Of a DNA stretch of 64,000 bases, positions 6,679 to 17,258 are shown one piece after another. The stretch is from positions 391,240 through 455,239 of the forward strand of contig JBFWVE010000003.1 in assembly GCA_050246895.1 (NCBI GenBank), in the 5' to 3' direction. The DNA is from Vicinamibacteria bacterium (GTDB taxonomy: Bacteria > Acidobacteriota > Vicinamibacteria > Fen-336). The position numbers and the translations under genes are program-made. Below the pieces are notes generated by a model. The model made no database searches. It worked only from the letters and a program-made list of their open reading frames with translations, and was not told the origin of the DNA. Position 1 is the stretch's first letter; each line of letters starts with the position of its first letter.

Positions 6679-8046
6679 ATGCTCATGTCCAACTACGTGA
6701 CCGACCTGCTTGCGGACGTCAAGGCCAAGAACCCGGCGGAGCCCGAGTTCCACCAGGCCGTGCAAGAGGTCGCCGAGTCGCTCGCTCTCGTCCTCGACCG
6801 TCATCCCGAGTACCGTCACAACCGCATCCTCGAACGCATCGTCGAGCCCGAACGCGTGCTCCTGTTCCGCGTCCCGTGGGTCGACGACCGCGGCGAGATC
6901 CGCATCAACCGTGGCTTCCGCATCGAGATGAACAGCGCGATCGGCCCGTACAAGGGCGGTCTGCGTTTTCATCCGTCGGTCAATCTCGGCATCCTGAAGT
7001 TCCTGGCCTTCGAGCAGGTCTTCAAGAACGCGCTCACCACGCTGCCGATGGGCGGCGGCAAGGGCGGCAGTGATTTCGACCCCAAGGGCAAGAGCGACGC
7101 CGAGGTGATGCGCTTCTGCCAGAGCTTCATGACCGAGCTGCAGCGCCACATCGGCCCCGACACGGACGTGCCGGCTGGCGACATCGGCGTCGGCGGCCGT
7201 GAGATCGGCTTCCTGTTCGGCCAGTACAAGCGCCTGCGCAACGAGTTCACCGGCGTCCTGACCGGCAAGGGCCTCAACTGGGGCGGCTCGCTGATCCGGC
7301 CCGAGGCGACCGGCTACGGCTGCGTCTACTTCGCGGCCGAGATGCTGAAGACCCGCAGCCAGACGCTGGAGGGCAAGCGCTGCCTCGTCTCCGGCAGCGG
7401 CAACGTGGCGCAGTACACCGTCGAGAAGCTGCTCGAGCTGGGCGCCAAGCCGCTGACGCTGTCCGACTCCGACGGGTTCATCCTGGACGAGGCGGGCATC
7501 GACCGCGAGAAGCTGGCCTTCGTGATCGAGCTGAAGAACGTGCGCCGGGGCCGCATCCGCGAGTACGCCGAGCGCTTCAAGACCGCGAGCTTCACGCCGC
7601 ACGACGCCAAGCTCGGCCACAACCCGCTCTGGTCGGTGAAGGCGGACTGTGCTTTCCCCTCCGCCACCCAGAACGAGATCAGCGCGACGGATGCCGACCA
7701 CCTGCTCAAGAACGGCGTCTACCTGGTCGCCGAGGGCGCCAACATGCCGACCACTCCCGAGGGCGTCACCCGCTTCGTCGACGCCGGCATCCTCTACGGC
7801 CCCGGCAAGGCCGCCAACGCCGGCGGCGTCGCCACCTCCGGCCTGGAGATGGCGCAGAACAGCATGCGCTTCTCCTGGACGCGCGAGGAGGTGGACAACC
7901 GGCTGCGCATCATCATGAAGAGCATCCACCAGGCCTGCGTGCAGACGTCCGAGCGCTTCGGGACGCCCGGCAACTACGTGAACGGCGCGAACATCGCCGG
8001 CTTCCTGAAGGTGGCCGACGCGATGATCGACCAGGGTGTCGTCTAG
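6679..8046 (+). CDS. gdhA: NADP-specific glutamate dehydrogenase (hexameric GdhA type). The start is set at MLMSNY..., which has a GGAGG Shine-Dalgarno 5 nt upstream; the ORF track start at 6631 is also possible.
   Basis: It is almost collinear with E. coli GdhA, sharing motifs such as [18 protein letters not shown] and [16 protein letters not shown]. Confidence 0.9.
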
Positions 8047-8127
8047 CCTTCGCGCTCCGGGCGCCTCGACGTTCTGGTCGTCTCCAGCGGAGACGGCGCG
8101 GGGCTAAGCTTCCCCGCGCCGCCTCCC

Positions 8128-14257: not shown

Positions 14258-15981
14258 GGGGCCCCCCTCAGGATCAGGCCGCGACCGCTGCGGGCGTCGA
14301 CGCGCACCTCGAAGGCCCGATCGGCGCGCCCGTGGACCACGTGCTCGGTCTCGGCCTGTCGCGGGAGCGCCTCGAGCCAATCCCAGTCGACGCGCGAGCC
14401 GCCGCGCCGCGTGACGCTCAGATAGGCGACGCCGAAGCTCAGCAGGTTGTGGAAGAAGTGCGAGCCCTGGCTCGGCTCCACCTCCAGATCCGGCAGCCCG
14501 GCCTCGACGATCACGCGCGCCGAGGCGACGTCGCCCCAGGCGACCGGGATGCCCAGCCAGGGGTCGGCCGAGCCCCAGCGTCCGAACCCGATCAGCACGC
14601 AGGCGCGCCCAGCGGCCAGCAGGCCCGCGTTCAGCCGCTCGATCTCGCTCGCGACCTCGCGCATCTTCGCACGCTCGAAGCCCTGGCGCTTCACGAACAG
14701 CACGTCGCGCAGGTCCGGGTAGCGGCCGTGGCCGACGGCGCCGGTCGCCGCCACCACCGCGCGCGGGTCGCCGAGGTCCTGCTCGCCGACCGGCTCGGGT
14801 TCGGCGCCGGTTCCCATCGGGCGCACCTGCAGGAAGCCGAGCCGCGCGCGCTCGGGCTCGATGGTGAGCGCGAGCTCGATCTCGACCGGCGCGCCCGCCC
14901 GAGCCTCGAACAGGCGCAGCAGGCCGTCCACGGCCTCGTGCAGCGGGAAGTCGGGGAACTCGCGCAGGGGCGCGAAATCGACGACCGGGCTGCCGCCGCG
15001 GCCGAGGCCGGGCGTCAGCCGGCCGGAGGCCGGGTCGTAGCTCGAGGCCACGGCCCCGAGCGTACCGTCGTCGGCCGCCAGCGTCAGGGGGCACTCGAGC
15101 AGGTACTCGGTCTCGGCCATCGGGTCCCAGTCCACCGGCTCGCCCATGTTGACCGCCCAGAAGCTGCGCTGCGCCGCGTCGAGGCGCTCGGCCGGCGTCG
15201 CGTAGGGCGGCACGGCGCGCGGATAGCGCGGGCAGTAGGTCCAGCAGCGGCCGCCGTCGACGATCGTCTTGCCGAGACCGAGCGCAAGGCTCGCCACCCC
15301 GTCCTCGGGTCGCGCGGGGCCGATCGGGTAGAAGCCGAGCGAGCGCGCGACCAGCGAGACGTCGGGATAGAAACGCGAGCCGTGCCGGCGGCCGACGACC
15401 TCCTGGACTACCACCGCCATCTTCTCGTCCGGCACGCCGCTGCCGAGCGCCGCCCGATACGCGCGGGCGGCTCGGAAGAACGTGGACGCGTAGACGAACT
15501 TGACCGCCTCGATCAACTTGCGAAAGCGCGTCTCGGCGCTCGACTGGTCGTTCGGCGTCAGCTTCGTCTCGTAGACGCCGGCGAAAGGGTGCGCCAGCGC
15601 GTCCTCGAGCCGGCTCGAGGAGCGGACCGCGAGAGGACGCGTGACGCCCGCCACCAGGGCCCACAGATCGCCCACGACCTCGGGCGGCAGCTCGGCCCGC
15701 TGGAACAGGAGCGCGATGCGGTGGTCCGGCAGCTCCGCCAGCTCAGCCTCGAGCAGGCCGCTGCGCTGCACGAACGAGTCGAAGACGTCGGTGCCGATCA
15801 CGGTGAGCGTCGGCACGTCGACCCCGAGCCGGCCGAGGCGCCTCGCCTCGCCGAAGCCCGCCAGCGCGCCGCGCGCCGCCTGCAGGCCTGCCGCCTTCCC
15901 GCCCACCTCCCCGGTCCCGATCGCGCTCAGAGGCTCGCCGGACCCGAAGAAGCGGCGCGGGAAGCGCGGCAGCGCGCTCAC
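14254..15981 (-). CDS. Stand-alone PPDK_N-type ATP-grasp protein with the same conserved C-terminal domain (paralog of the two preceding proteins). The likely GTG start overlaps the gdh stop as GTGA.
   Basis: Motifs GGKAAGLQAARGAL, LAVRSSSRLED, KMAVVVQEVVG, IGFGRWGSADPWLGIPVAWGDV, PSQGSHFFHNL. There is no ATG in frame; a GTG sits at 15981 immediately after the upstream stop. The rest of the listed 913-aa ORF overlaps gdh in another frame and is spurious. Confidence 0.7.
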   Translation of the reverse strand: MSALPRFPRRFFGSGEPLSAIGTGEVGGKAAGLQAARGALAGFGEARRLGRLGVDVPTLTVIGTDVFDSFVQRSGLLEAELAELPDHRIALLFQRAELPPEVVGDLWALVAGVTRPLAVRSSSRLEDALAHPFAGVYETKLTPNDQSSAETRFRKLIEAVKFVYASTFFRAARAYRAALGSGVPDEKMAVVVQEVVGRRHGSRFYPDVSLVARSLGFYPIGPARPEDGVASLALGLGKTIVDGGRCWTYCPRYPRAVPPYATPAERLDAAQRSFWAVNMGEPVDWDPMAETEYLLECPLTLAADDGTLGAVASSYDPASGRLTPGLGRGGSPVVDFAPLREFPDFPLHEAVDGLLRLFEARAGAPVEIELALTIEPERARLGFLQVRPMGTGAEPEPVGEQDLGDPRAVVAATGAVGHGRYPDLRDVLFVKRQGFERAKMREVASEIERLNAGLLAAGRACVLIGFGRWGSADPWLGIPVAWGDVASARVIVEAGLPDLEVEPSQGSHFFHNLLSFGVAYLSVTRRGGSRVDWDWLEALPRQAETEHVVHGRADRAFEVRVDARSGRGLILRGAP

Positions 15982-17258
15982 ACCCAGCCGCGCTCCCGGC
16001 AGGCCTGCGCCACCCGGCTGATCGCGATCACGTAGGCAGCGTCGCGCATCGGCAGCTTGCGCCGATCCGCCAGCTCGTGGACGGCGTGGAACGCCGAGGT
16101 CATCTTCACGTCGAGCTTGGCCAGGACCTCGTCCTTCTCCCAATAGTAGTTCGTGTTGCTCTGGACCTGCTCGAAGTAGCTGCAGGTCACACCACCGGCG
16201 TTGGCCAGGAAGTCGGGGATCACGTAGATCCCGCGCTGGCGCAGCACGGCGTCGCCGTCCGTGGTGGTCGGGCCGTTGGCGCCCTCGGCGATGATCTTCA
16301 CGCTGCCCGCGATGCGGCGGGCGCTCTCGCCGTCGATCTGGTTCTCGAGCGCCGCGGGGACCAGGATCTCGACCGGCTCCGCCAGCCAGGCGTCGCCGGG
16401 CAGCACCTCGTAGCCCAGCTCGCGCGCCTTCTCCTTGTCGATGCCGCCGAAGCGGTCGGCGATCCCGACCAGCGCGTCGGCGTCGACGCCGTCCTGCTTG
16501 CGGAACGAGTAGGCGCGCTGGTCCTGCTGGTCCCAGCAGGAGACGCAGGAGACCTTGCCGCCGATCCGCTGGAACAACCGGATCGCGTACTGCGCGACGT
16601 TGCCGAAGCCCTGCACGCTGGCCCGCGCGCCCTCGGGCTTGAGGTCCAGCTCGCGAAGCGCCTCGCGCAGGGCGAAGACGACGCCGTAGCCCGTGGCCTC
16701 GGTGCGCCCGAGCGAGCCGCCCATGCCGACCGGCTTGCCGGTGATGAAGCCCGGGAAGTGCCCGCCGCGGATGTGCTCGTACTCGTCGAGCATCCACAGC
16801 ATGTGCTGGGCGTTCGTCATCACGTCGGGCGCTGGCACGTCCGCCACCGGGCCCACGTTGCGGGCGATCTGGCGAACCCAGCCGCGGCACAGCTGCTCCT
16901 GCTCGCGCGGGCTCAGGTTGTGCGGGTCGCAGATGATGCCGCCCTTGGCGCCTCCGAGCGGAATGTCCACCACGGCGCACTTCCAGGTCATCCACATCGC
17001 CAGCGCGCGCACGGTGTCGAGCGTCTCCTGCGGATGGAAGCGGATGCCCCCCTTGCTCGGTCCGCGCGCATCGGAGTGCTGCACCCGGAAGCCGCGAAAC
17101 ACGTGCACGTTGCCGCCGTCCATGCGCACCGGTATCGCGAACGAGTACTCACGCAGGGGCCAGCGCAGCAACTCTCGCGACGCGGGGTCGAGCCCGAGCA
17201 GCTCCGCGACGTGGTCGAACTGGGCCTGGGCGATCTCGAACGAGTTGTAGGACTTCAT
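15978..17258 (-). CDS. gdh: Glutamate dehydrogenase, Bacillus/archaeal ~425-aa type (Glu/Leu/Phe/Val dehydrogenase family). The start is taken at MKSYNSFEIAQAQF.
   Basis: Motifs PLGGAKGGIICDPHNLS, GVTCSYFEQVQ and GFGNVAQYA. The upstream 37-aa extension in the ORF track is Arg-rich and unlikely. Confidence 0.85.
   Translation of the reverse strand: MKSYNSFEIAQAQFDHVAELLGLDPASRELLRWPLREYSFAIPVRMDGGNVHVFRGFRVQHSDARGPSKGGIRFHPQETLDTVRALAMWMTWKCAVVDIPLGGAKGGIICDPHNLSPREQEQLCRGWVRQIARNVGPVADVPAPDVMTNAQHMLWMLDEYEHIRGGHFPGFITGKPVGMGGSLGRTEATGYGVVFALREALRELDLKPEGARASVQGFGNVAQYAIRLFQRIGGKVSCVSCWDQQDQRAYSFRKQDGVDADALVGIADRFGGIDKEKARELGYEVLPGDAWLAEPVEILVPAALENQIDGESARRIAGSVKIIAEGANGPTTTDGDAVLRQRGIYVIPDFLANAGGVTCSYFEQVQSNTNYYWEKDEVLAKLDVKMTSAFHAVHELADRRKLPMRDAAYVIAISRVAQACRERGWV

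Follow-up and report, generated by a model that had tools for sequence, protein, structure and literature searches.

Five open reading frames lie between positions 6679 and 17258 of the 64,000-nucleotide stretch analysed here (the window), in the order gdhA, P1 converging on P2, P3 and gdh2 (Table 1). All five were confirmed at their coordinates, with the layout that a first-pass annotation had described: gdhA followed by a REC-REC-PPDK_N protein, facing a PPDK_N-nucleotidyltransferase protein, a PPDK_N protein and gdh on the other strand. The four-base stop/start overlaps that it had read at the gdh2/P3 (GTGA) and P3/P2 (ATGA) junctions are both present, and its length of 447 amino acids for GdhA becomes 455 when counted from the ATG at 6679. 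The mirror symmetry it had seen holds in this window but not as a general arrangement, as the relative orientation of units A and B differs among related loci. The two dehydrogenases are of different types, as had been proposed. Both match the Pfam families ELFV_dehydrog_N and ELFV_dehydrog, with an identity of only 33% to one another; GdhA passes the NADP-GDH equivalog PRK09414 (NCBIfam; 757 bits, cut-off 536), and the closest PDB relatives of Gdh2 are the Thermococcus and Bacillus enzymes (E 1e-116).

Table 1. Genes, domains and sites of the gdh/PPDK_N locus, with positions in the window.
Feature	Position	Strand	Description
gdhA	6679-8046	+	455 aa; E. coli-type NADP-specific glutamate dehydrogenase; heads unit B (gdhA, then P1)
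P1	8128-11073	+	981 aa; response-regulator-type paralog
P1 REC1, aa ~22-150	8191-8577	+	pseudo-receiver; Ala88 at phospho-acceptor position
P1 REC2, aa ~165-310	8620-9057	+	receiver, pocket intact
P1 ATP-grasp nucleotide-binding domain, aa 431-797	9418-10518	+	Pfam PPDK_N, E 6.6e-37
P1 His911 codon (PSQGTHFFQNL)	10858-10860	+	predicted phosphoryl-carrier histidine; invariant in P1, P2 and P3 families
P1/P2 overlap	11051-11073		23 nt; convergent 3' ends
P2	11051-14257	-	1068 aa
P2 C-terminal minimal nucleotidyltransferase domain, aa 934-1052	11102-11458	-	Pfam; motif YGSALGGSARPASDLDL
P2 His835 codon (LSFGTHFFQDL)	11753-11755	-	predicted phosphoryl-carrier histidine
P2 ATP-grasp domain, aa 341-720	12098-13237	-	
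P2 N-terminal GAF sensor domain, aa 11-140	13838-14227	-	
ATGA overlap	14254-14257	-	P3 stop codon / P2 ATG start codon
P3	14254-15981	-	575 aa; minimal paralog, solely ATP-grasp and phosphohistidine-type C-domain
P3 C-terminal domain, aa 404-575	14257-14772	-	motifs GFGRWGSxDPWLGIPV, SQG[ST]HFF; predicted swivelling beta/beta/alpha phosphohistidine-carrier fold
P3 His508 codon (PSQGSHFFHNL)	14458-14460	-	invariant in P1, P2 and P3 families
GTGA overlap	15978-15981	-	gdh2 stop codon / P3 GTG start codon
gdh2	15978-17258	-	426 aa; hexameric Pyrococcus/Bacillus-type glutamate dehydrogenase; heads unit A (gdh2, P3, P2)

Aligned over 558 residues, the whole catalytic module, P3 and P1 share 43% identity, while P3 and P2 share 31% over 533 residues. 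In all three families 71 positions never vary, among them K29, R120-S-S-S, E126-D127, Q193, E369, Q385, R387 and H508. The PPDK_N domain that had been assigned to all three proteins is borne out by Pfam matches with E values of 1e-29 to 1e-54 (1.5e-29 for P3 and 4e-54 for P2). The first-pass annotation had also held that they lack both a His-swivel and a PEP-binding domain. The latter is upheld: profile searches found neither PEP-utilizers_C nor a rifampin-binding domain in P1, P2 or P3, and P3 stops after its histidine domain. The former is probably wrong, since structure models predict that the common C-terminal domain is a phosphohistidine carrier of the swivel type; its invariant histidine sits, in the P3 model, at the N-terminus of helix 508-515. 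As in PPDK and PEP synthase, an N-terminal PPDK_N ATP-grasp directly precedes a domain of the swivel type whose conserved histidine lies at a helix start, the ATP-grasp catalytic residues are kept, and Foldseek alignments to PPDK span 650-708 columns. Unlike those enzymes, the P proteins have no PEP/pyruvate-binding TIM barrel and occur as fusions with REC, GAF or nucleotidyltransferase domains and in linkage to gdh, and their histidine domain is missed by the PEP_utilizers profile, forming a small family of its own (2318 clusters at 50% identity). P1, P2 and P3 thus look like a pyruvate phosphate dikinase that ends after the histidine domain, without the acceptor-binding domain. Orthology to rifampicin phosphotransferase or PEP synthase was rejected with NCBIfam models, on which the paralogs score 25-63 bits against cut-offs of 598-1350; the PPDK and PEP synthase equivalogs give 33-53 bits against 598-740 (740 for PEP_synth) and RIF_Ptrans_rph 25-31 bits against 999.

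The receiver fusion of P1 and the nucleotidyltransferase fusion of P2, both noted before, are supported by Pfam matches to Response_reg in two stretches of P1 and to NTP_transf_2 at residues 957-991 of P2 (E 9.5e-6), where Polbeta matched too; the match of an MntA-type model to this domain was weak. From its N-terminus P1 comprises the pseudo-receiver, the receiver, a DUF5752-like linker, the ATP-grasp and the phosphohistidine-type domain. A88 of the first receiver lies opposite CheY D57 in an hhalign alignment (local sequence VVSALQL, confirmed), and D246 occupies this position in the second, with a weak score (E 0.031); E176-D177, D246, S280 and K299 of the second receiver are invariant in eight aligned P1 N-terminal sequences. 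Some databases label P1 homologs 'histidine kinase'. In P2 a GAF domain and a helical region precede the ATP-grasp and phosphohistidine-type domains, which are followed by a small beta domain and the minimal nucleotidyltransferase. The G-S...D-L-D motif of the latter is intact, with G966, S967, D978 and D980 invariant among 30 P2 homologs. His835 is invariant both in these homologs and across the three families, its position, like those of P1 His911 and P3 His508, was confirmed in the sequence, and the structure model of P2 has low confidence for the loop that carries it.

The proposed check of gdh-PPDK_N adjacency in other genomes was strongly positive. Among the unit A loci examined, the best 80 of at least 583 matches, 66 of 74 species-representative loci have a gdh2-type gene immediately upstream of P3 and co-directional with it, with a chance expectation below 0.1 in 74 (a rough estimate, taking about 3 gdh among about 4000 genes). 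These loci come from more than ten phyla, among them Acidobacteriota, Zixibacteria, Calditrichota, Ignavibacteria, Gemmatimonadota, Planctomycetota, Eisenbacteria and Latescibacterota, across which P3 is 43-59% identical and the upstream gdh2 orthologs 60-82%. Within the same best 80, P2 directly follows P3 in 65/68 loci (median gap 27 nt), and P1 is found in only 9/80. The two also exist as a single P3-P2 fusion of about 1630 amino acids, still positioned after gdh. P1 lies directly downstream of gdhA in 31 of 51 metagenome loci, an adjacency of only about 60-70%. That gdh and PPDK_N genes pair as a functional unit and not by coincidence is therefore well supported. A metallophosphoesterase gene adjoins P2 in 50/62 loci, usually on the opposite strand; it is missing from this window, and the position of the P1/P2 3'-overlap is that of the metallophosphoesterase gene in most other genomes. 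No conserved neighbour other than the dehydrogenase and this gene was found at these loci, including any further pathway enzyme.

The best reading is that the window carries two copies, units A and B, of a widespread and undescribed glutamate-dehydrogenase-associated system; a description of such a system was not found in the searchable literature. The explanation we favour, tentatively and with a probability of about 45%, is that the P proteins are signal-gated, ATP-driven phosphohistidine modules acting on the adjacent dehydrogenase. The intact receiver of P1 (D246), the N-terminal GAF of P2 and the metallophosphoesterase elsewhere lend weight to the earlier idea of a signal-controlled module. 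Whereas the gene content, the domain folds, the invariant residues, the conserved adjacency and the fusion are observations, we infer the modified target and the chemistry, from autophosphorylation of the histidine and the identity of the acceptor to the ligands sensed and the consequences for dehydrogenase activity, as follows. Each P protein would be a two-domain engine, in which the PPDK-type ATP-grasp binds ATP and, on the model of pyruvate phosphate dikinase, PEP synthase and rifampin phosphotransferase, phosphorylates H508 (P3), H835 (P2) or H911 (P1) of the swivel-type domain, which in turn would ferry the phosphoryl group to an acceptor. Because P1, P2 and P3 all lack an acceptor-binding domain, the phosphoryl acceptor would be provided in trans, putatively by the co-encoded dehydrogenase, as an enzyme residue or a ligand held in the enzyme, and the modification would switch dehydrogenase activity post-translationally. 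P1 may take its input from a histidine kinase that phosphorylates the receiver, and P2 from a small molecule sensed by the GAF domain, with 2-oxoglutarate and glutamine as candidate ligands. The nucleotidyltransferase of P2 might attach a nucleotidyl group as a second mark or target its partner, and the metallophosphoesterase is a candidate eraser. Several observations count against this explanation. To our knowledge, every characterised PPDK_N/swivel enzyme phosphorylates small molecules or water, and the sole swivel-domain enzyme we know to pass a phosphoryl group to protein, PTS Enzyme I, has no ATP-grasp. The incomplete gdhA-P1 adjacency, the low-confidence His835 loop, and the absence here and mostly opposite strand elsewhere of the metallophosphoesterase weigh in the same direction.

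Those small-molecule acceptors also suggest that P3 and P2, and perhaps P1, are themselves small-molecule dikinases that phosphorylate or nucleotidylate a metabolite that the neighbouring dehydrogenase makes or uses, in a glutamate/2-oxoglutarate pathway encoded by a metabolic rather than a regulatory operon. PPDK, PEP synthase, rifampin phosphotransferase, HpeHI and PigC/RedH all use small molecules and are the nearest structural and profile matches, and pathways typically show operon linkage with an enzyme. The favoured explanation, too, has a precedent in HpeHI (PMC12167813), a split dikinase that uses a swivel histidine; with AcvAB and phenylphosphate synthase it forms the nearest comparison among two-component small-molecule dikinases. 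In HpeHI, however, the swivel and substrate-binding domains lie together on a separate subunit, whereas in P1, P2 and P3 the swivel is fused to the ATP-grasp and the substrate-binding domain is present in none; P3 consists of the ATP-grasp and histidine domains only. Pairing is also by type, gdhA-type genes with P1 and gdh2-type genes with P3/P2, which fits recognition of protein better than of a common metabolite, for which a dedicated paralog for each of two unrelated dehydrogenases would be needless. Together with receiver, GAF and minimal nucleotidyltransferase domains, which are commoner in regulators, and a neighbourhood with no further conserved pathway enzyme, these points make this alternative unlikely, if a serious one.

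Slightly less likely still is a signalling or energy-sensing role in which the phosphoryl group goes elsewhere or no covalent transfer to the dehydrogenase occurs. In one variant, P3 would hand phosphate on to P2 or a receiver domain, so that an ATP-grasp would stand in for a histidine kinase; His-to-Asp transfer is well-established chemistry, P1 unites an intact receiver with a His module, the P3-P2 fusion shows that these two work jointly, and the database label of P1 homologs agrees. The scarcity of P1 at unit A loci implies, though, that its receiver is no general acceptor for P3/P2, and no conserved partner beyond the dehydrogenase and the metallophosphoesterase was found. In the other variant, the P proteins would bind the dehydrogenase, co-expressed or bound but not a chemical acceptor, and modulate it allosterically in response to ATP/AMP; the invariant catalytic residues speak against a purely binding role. 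That a functional link is absent, the genes being syntenic hitch-hikers encoding ordinary PEP synthases or rifampicin-phosphotransferase-like resistance enzymes, is hardly credible: NCBI/JGI labels ('PEP/pyruvate-binding domain-containing protein', 'pyruvate, water dikinase') suggest it, but it is contradicted by the adjacency across divergent phyla, the gene fusions and overlapping stop/start codons, by the missing PEP/pyruvate- and rifampin-binding domains, the latter lying between the ATP-grasp and His domains of rifampin phosphotransferase, by a genomic setting that is not one of resistance, and by the low bit scores.

In concept, phosphohistidine modules acting on a dehydrogenase would resemble GlnE/GlnD (glutamine synthetase), AceK (isocitrate dehydrogenase) and PDRP (PPDK), in which a signal-sensing modifier with writer and eraser activities switches a central enzyme. 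The P2 nucleotidyltransferase belongs to the same broad superfamily as GlnE/GlnD, but homology to GlnE, GlnD, AceK or PDRP goes no further than the generic minimal nucleotidyltransferase fold, and the main engine of the P proteins, whose target is a presumed one, is a dikinase-type module. In contrast to the nitrogen-PTS protein Enzyme I-Ntr (PtsP), they would draw on ATP through an ATP-grasp and not on PEP through a TIM barrel; a gene for an HPr/NPr-like carrier is absent near the P genes, and their histidine domain has no detectable sequence homology to that enzyme. The retention of the pairing across more than ten bacterial phyla points to an undescribed control of a central nitrogen enzyme.

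The region between positions 6679 and 17258 of the window is high-GC DNA (~72% G+C), and ORF calling with Pfam and NCBIfam searches recovered from it the five genes of the first-pass annotation, in exactly the content and order it had given: two glutamate dehydrogenase (GDH) genes, gdhA and gdh2, enclosing genes for three paralogous ATP-grasp proteins, P1, P2 and P3. We refer to gdh2, P3 and P2 as unit A and to gdhA and P1 as unit B. The overlaps described within unit A are real (GTGA at 15978-15981 and ATGA at 14254-14257), and P1 and P2, which converge, share 23 nt at their 3' ends. 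No additional copy of the five genes is present elsewhere in the 64 kb window, and the nearest relatives of the locus genes are found in Vicinamibacteria MAGs and not demonstrably in Myxococcota. Both dehydrogenases carry the ELFV dimerization and NAD(P)-binding domains (Pfam) and belong to the glutamate dehydrogenases; as had been proposed, they are of different types, with just 33% identity between them. At 757 bits, gdhA exceeds the cut-off (536) of PRK09414, the NCBIfam equivalog for NADP-specific GDH, and gdh2 is of the hexameric type known from Pyrococcus, Thermococcus and Bacillus (E 1e-116 to GDHs of solved structure), scoring 448 bits against the archaeal GDH equivalog, under its cut-off of 750 (NCBIfam). 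The PPDK_N domain ascribed to all three central proteins was found in each of them (Pfam, E 1e-29 to 1e-54). P3 is 43% identical to P1 over 558 aligned residues and 31% identical to P2 over 533; since these alignments span both the ATP-grasp domain and the C-terminal domain that follows it, the three proteins are true paralogs over both.

Coordinates of features in the window (plain positions) and in related loci or contigs (L-numbers).
Feature	Position	Strand	Note
pnt transhydrogenase operon	3635-6470	-	ORFs 5325-6470 and 3635-5017, small membrane subunit in between
gdhA	6679-8046	+	455 aa
P1	8128-11073	+	981 aa
P1 linker, second receiver to ATP-grasp	9127-9351	+	residues 334-408
P2	11051-14257	-	1068 aa
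P3	14254-15981	-	575 aa
gdh2	15978-17258	-	426 aa
gdh2 insertion region	16390-16540	-	residues ~240-290
Universal stress protein gene	17459-17920	+	153 aa
Hydrogenase-like ORFs	26197-30393	-	N-termini judged by eye
P3-P2 fusion ORFs	L163:5001-9905, L164:5001-9902
Metallophosphoesterase, examples	L003-L082, e.g. L026:14896-15801; L163:9906-10763
Third GDH and second P3-like gene	L001:12939-15158
More distant GDH paralog	L009:15898-20233, L007:15871-17109, L031:7100-8317

Divergent from gdhA lies a pntAA/pntAB/pntB proton-translocating NAD(P) transhydrogenase operon; an NADPH-generating system beside an NADP-GDH may be meaningful or a coincidence. In L001, a contig 93-97% identical to the window, a third gdh takes the place of this operon. 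A universal stress protein gene is divergent from gdh2 in the same arrangement in the window and in L001, where the gene product is a PF00582 Usp. The [NiFe]-hydrogenase large subunit-like (MARIVIDPITRIEGHLRIDVE...) and hydrogenase maturation protease-like ORFs, ~9-13 kb from the locus, are unrelated to the GDH and PPDK_N genes.

The adjacency of gdh and PPDK_N genes is strongly conserved, and both units were recovered in other genomes. For unit A, an alignment of P3 homologs (A1) was searched against one genome per species and found at least 583 relatives; the counts that follow rest on the best 80 of these, which are the closest ones (43-59% identical to P3). Their hosts include Acidobacteriota (Vicinamibacteria and Terriglobales), Zixibacteria, Calditrichota, Ignavibacteria, Gemmatimonadota, Planctomycetota, Eisenbacteria, Latescibacterota and Alphaproteobacteria, among others. 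A gdh2-type gene, 60-82% identical to gdh2, stands directly upstream of P3 on the same strand in 66 of the 74 loci with enough flanking DNA, and within 10 kb of it in three more; by our own rough estimate, which is not the output of a tool and assumes ~3 gdh genes among ~4000, chance would account for fewer than 0.1 of the 74. In 65 of 68 loci P3 is directly followed by a full-length P2 ortholog, with a median gap of 27 nt, and P3 and P2 are also found as natural fusions of ~1630 aa in several protein clusters. One of these (P0336) was aligned to P3, and P0336 and P0358 come directly after a gdh gene in their contigs; five more (P0319, P0344, P0350, P0352 and P0360) are probable fusions, judged by their length and their P2 match.

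Unit B was sought independently in metagenome contigs, with only the receiver region of P1 as query (alignment A4). gdhA lies directly upstream of P1 on the same strand in 31 of the 51 loci with at least 1500 nt of upstream sequence, and in 36 of them it is found somewhere upstream on that strand in the flanking sequence that was covered. The pairing is type-specific, gdhA-type genes being found with P1 and gdh2-type genes with P3 and P2. The neighborhoods of the P1 loci hold no conserved histidine kinase or other partner beside P1; the only genes that recur there, ahcY upstream and one of the phosphotriesterase family downstream, look like clade-level synteny. Where gdhA is missing upstream of P1 (L099, L104, L109, L110, L120, L128), a divergent S-adenosylhomocysteine hydrolase gene is often found there, probably again as clade-level synteny. 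The two units are often adjacent but differently oriented (L101-L103, L118, L131, L153), so the mirror symmetry to which the first-pass annotation had drawn attention is incidental, while each unit in itself is not.

Further GDH copies were seen in related contigs. Just past gdhA in L001 comes a third GDH, which shares 79% identity with gdh2, and after it a second P3-like gene (56% identical); this indicates that unit A can be present in a genome more than once. Some loci have a more remote GDH paralog (38-45% identity to gdh2), near P1/gdhA in L009, L145 and L146 and beside gdh2-P3-P2 in L007 and L031; the association with the PPDK_N paralogs may thus extend to further GDH subtypes.

A further conserved gene emerged when flanking ORFs were clustered over 82 loci (the 80 from the genome scan, L001 and L002). 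In 50 of 62 loci, from different phyla, the 3' end of P2 is adjoined by a gene for a calcineurin-like metallophosphoesterase of ~290 aa (PF00149, E 1e-8); this gene is convergent to P2 in 47 of the 50, typically at a distance of ~20 nt, and its orthologs are ~58% identical across phyla. It was looked for in the window and is absent both there and from L001; in these two contigs P1 sits where the metallophosphoesterase stands elsewhere. We regard it as a candidate eraser of the system.

No profile library names the C-terminal domain of P1, P2 and P3. Foldseek alignments of the paralogs to PPDK span 650-708 columns, a length sufficient to take in not only the ATP-grasp domain but also the phosphohistidine domain located after it in the center of PPDK. 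With rifampin phosphotransferase the alignments end at ~400 columns; in that enzyme the swivel domain is placed far downstream of the ATP-grasp domain. In a 39-sequence alignment of the three families a histidine of this domain (H508 in P3, H835 in P2, H911 in P1), the predicted phosphoryl carrier, is invariant, and in the predicted structure it stands at the N-terminus of a helix that is followed by a strand, as the catalytic histidine does in PPDK. Among the 71 invariant positions are also K29, R120-S-S-S, E126-D127, Q193, E369, Q385 and R387, taken by analogy to be the ATP-grasp catalytic set; with these residues retained, all three paralogs look catalytically competent from their sequences. 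The isolated C-terminal domain has no significant Pfam match to PEP_utilizers (PF00391), its profile found nothing significant among all PDB sequences beyond spurious longin-domain matches, and hhalign against the genuine PPDK His domain encoded in L082 gave a probability of 0.04%, so that it is only the predicted fold that leads to the swivel/phosphohistidine assignment. Searched against 1.84 billion representative proteins, the profile returned only 2318 clusters; among the matches listed, all lengths fit P1-, P3- or fusion-type proteins or fragments, and none provides a bridge to a known family. Ten of these matches examined with Pfam all carry PPDK_N (10/10), with REC or DUF5752-like extensions. 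As judged by sequence, the C-terminal domain is a family of its own. The first-pass statement that none of the three proteins carries a His-swivel domain is probably wrong, in view of the predicted swivel-type fold and its invariant histidine; the accompanying statement that they lack the PEP/pyruvate-binding domain holds, PF02896 having no match in P1, P2 or P3. The models thus suggest that the paralogs are in effect PPDK cut off after the phosphohistidine domain.

Around this engine P1 and P2 carry different accessory domains. P1 has two Response_reg stretches (Pfam). In the first, REC1, Ala88 is aligned where CheY has the acceptor Asp57, which marks it as a pseudo-receiver; the second, REC2, has the residues of a receiver (E176-D177, D246, S280 and K299, invariant in eight aligned P1 N-terminal sequences), with D246 aligning, weakly, to CheY D57 (E 0.031). 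Other members of the P1 family have a single receiver, or just a DUF5752-like linker, ahead of the same engine. The stretch of P1 that joins REC2 to the ATP-grasp domain (motif YHAERNHFSKWLKARTEF) has a sub-threshold DUF5752 match and is found again in shorter family members without receivers. The N-terminus of P2 has a GAF fold and belongs to the GAF sensors, and its model (pLDDT 75.7) places a helical region, the ATP-grasp domain, the His domain, a small beta domain and a nucleotidyltransferase in that order, with low confidence in the His loop. The C-terminus matches NTP_transf_2 (PF01909, E 9.5e-6) and Polbeta (PF18765, E 1.6e-5) and has the Pol-beta-type motif G-[GS]-x(9-13)-D-x-[DE] intact as G-S...D-L-D (YGSALGGSARPASDLDL), with G966, S967, D978 and D980 invariant. 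At 25 bits against a cut-off of 60 for the MntA_antitoxin model, P2 falls outside that equivalog. An anti-phage defence reading was rejected: PADLOC gave no matches for P1 or P3, and just weak ones for P2 through the generic nucleotidyltransferase domain.

Comparison with characterized systems shows where the paralogs depart from them. PPDK and PEP synthase share the PPDK_N ATP-grasp domain with P1, P2 and P3 but have a PEP/pyruvate-binding TIM barrel (PF02896) of their own, whereas P1 and P3 end right after the His domain; the paralogs score 31-53 bits against PEP_synth and PRK06464, whose cut-offs are 598-740. Rifampin phosphotransferase (~865 aa) has a rifampin-binding domain between ATP-grasp and swivel that is lacking in the paralogs, of which P3 has just 575 aa, and RIF_Ptrans_rph matched the ATP-grasp domain only, at 24.6-31.5 bits against a cut-off of 999. 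With NCBIfam cut-offs unreached and domains missing, a role as resistance or central-metabolism enzymes was rejected; the scores, far under every equivalog cut-off, agree with the earlier view that these are not central-metabolism dikinases, and equally speak against their being rifampicin-phosphotransferase orthologs. HpeHI-type enzymes have a separate subunit with swivel and substrate-binding domains, whereas in P1, P2 and P3 the swivel-type domain is fused to ATP-grasp, and neither the window nor the conserved neighborhood has an HpeH-like gene. Enzyme I-Ntr resembles P2 in outline, with a GAF sensor and a phosphohistidine domain from which phosphate is passed to a protein, but its donor is PEP, while that of P2 would be ATP. 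Database labels for the family range over 'PEP/pyruvate-binding domain-containing protein', 'pyruvate, water dikinase', 'CheY-like chemotaxis protein', 'histidine kinase' and 'hypothetical'.

We propose that each module would autophosphorylate its own histidine from ATP, as in PPDK, PEP synthase, rifampin phosphotransferase and HpeHI (PMC12167813), and would then pass its phosphoryl group on to an acceptor provided in trans; none of the three proteins contains an acceptor-binding domain. GDH is favored as this acceptor because across phyla no other partner is conserved with these genes. We therefore favor a signal-gated, covalent control of GDH, at a probability of roughly 0.45. Gating would come from the receiver in P1 or the GAF metabolite sensor in P2, with the P2 nucleotidyltransferase as a second writer and the metallophosphoesterase as eraser. 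Relative to the Bacillus-type GDH 8ysw, gdh2 proteins of the P3-linked clade contain two short inserted segments within the NAD(P)-binding domain, CWDQQDQR and GIDKEKARELGY; a search of 68 orthologs for a clade-specific candidate acceptor residue found W242 invariant and D243 nearly so, and the insertions could be a docking or modification site.

The alternative that survives best, although we consider it unlikely, is that the paralogs are small-molecule dikinases of a glutamate/2-oxoglutarate-linked pathway. Their characterized relatives all act on small molecules, but neither an acceptor domain nor a further pathway gene is conserved, and a dedicated paralog for each GDH type is more in keeping with a protein being recognized than with a metabolite common to both. 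Less likely again is that the phosphoryl group goes elsewhere, or that GDH is regulated without covalent transfer. That there is no functional link, or that these are ordinary PEP synthases or resistance enzymes, is highly improbable, contradicted as it is by the conserved adjacency, the P3-P2 fusions, the absent domains and the equivalog scores.

The covalent control of GDH can be extended, more tentatively, to a phylum-spanning post-translational system in which acceptor-less ATP-grasp/phosphohistidine modules would act as protein-directed phosphotransferases, REC- or GAF-gated and provided with writer and eraser, and would switch both GDHs reciprocally. A cell with both an NADP-GDH and another GDH is prone to a futile cycle, and we speculate that the two units exist for reciprocal control of the anabolic NADP-GDH and the second GDH, avoiding such a cycle. 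The engine comes from a known superfamily; what would be new, if confirmed, is the reading at system level, that of an apparatus dedicated to modifying GDH. Our literature search, made in open-access full text, where absence is not proof, found the pairing of GDH with these proteins undescribed.

GDH stands at the junction of carbon and nitrogen metabolism. Dedicated modifiers act on glutamine synthetase (GlnE/GlnD), isocitrate dehydrogenase (AceK) and PPDK (PDRP), and we know of none for a bacterial GDH. The conserved three- to four-gene unit of gdh, P3, P2 and phosphoesterase would close this gap and make GDH regulation directly testable, in carriers from environmentally dominant, poorly studied phyla (Acidobacteriota, Gemmatimonadota, Ignavibacteria, Calditrichota, Planctomycetota, Zixibacteria and others). 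If the proposal is true, these would be the first PPDK_N-type enzymes to modify a protein, the known role of the PPDK-type ATP-grasp/swivel-histidine pair would no longer be confined to phosphorylating small molecules but would include signal-gated action on, or together with, a partner enzyme, and thousands of vaguely annotated proteins would gain a working functional context.
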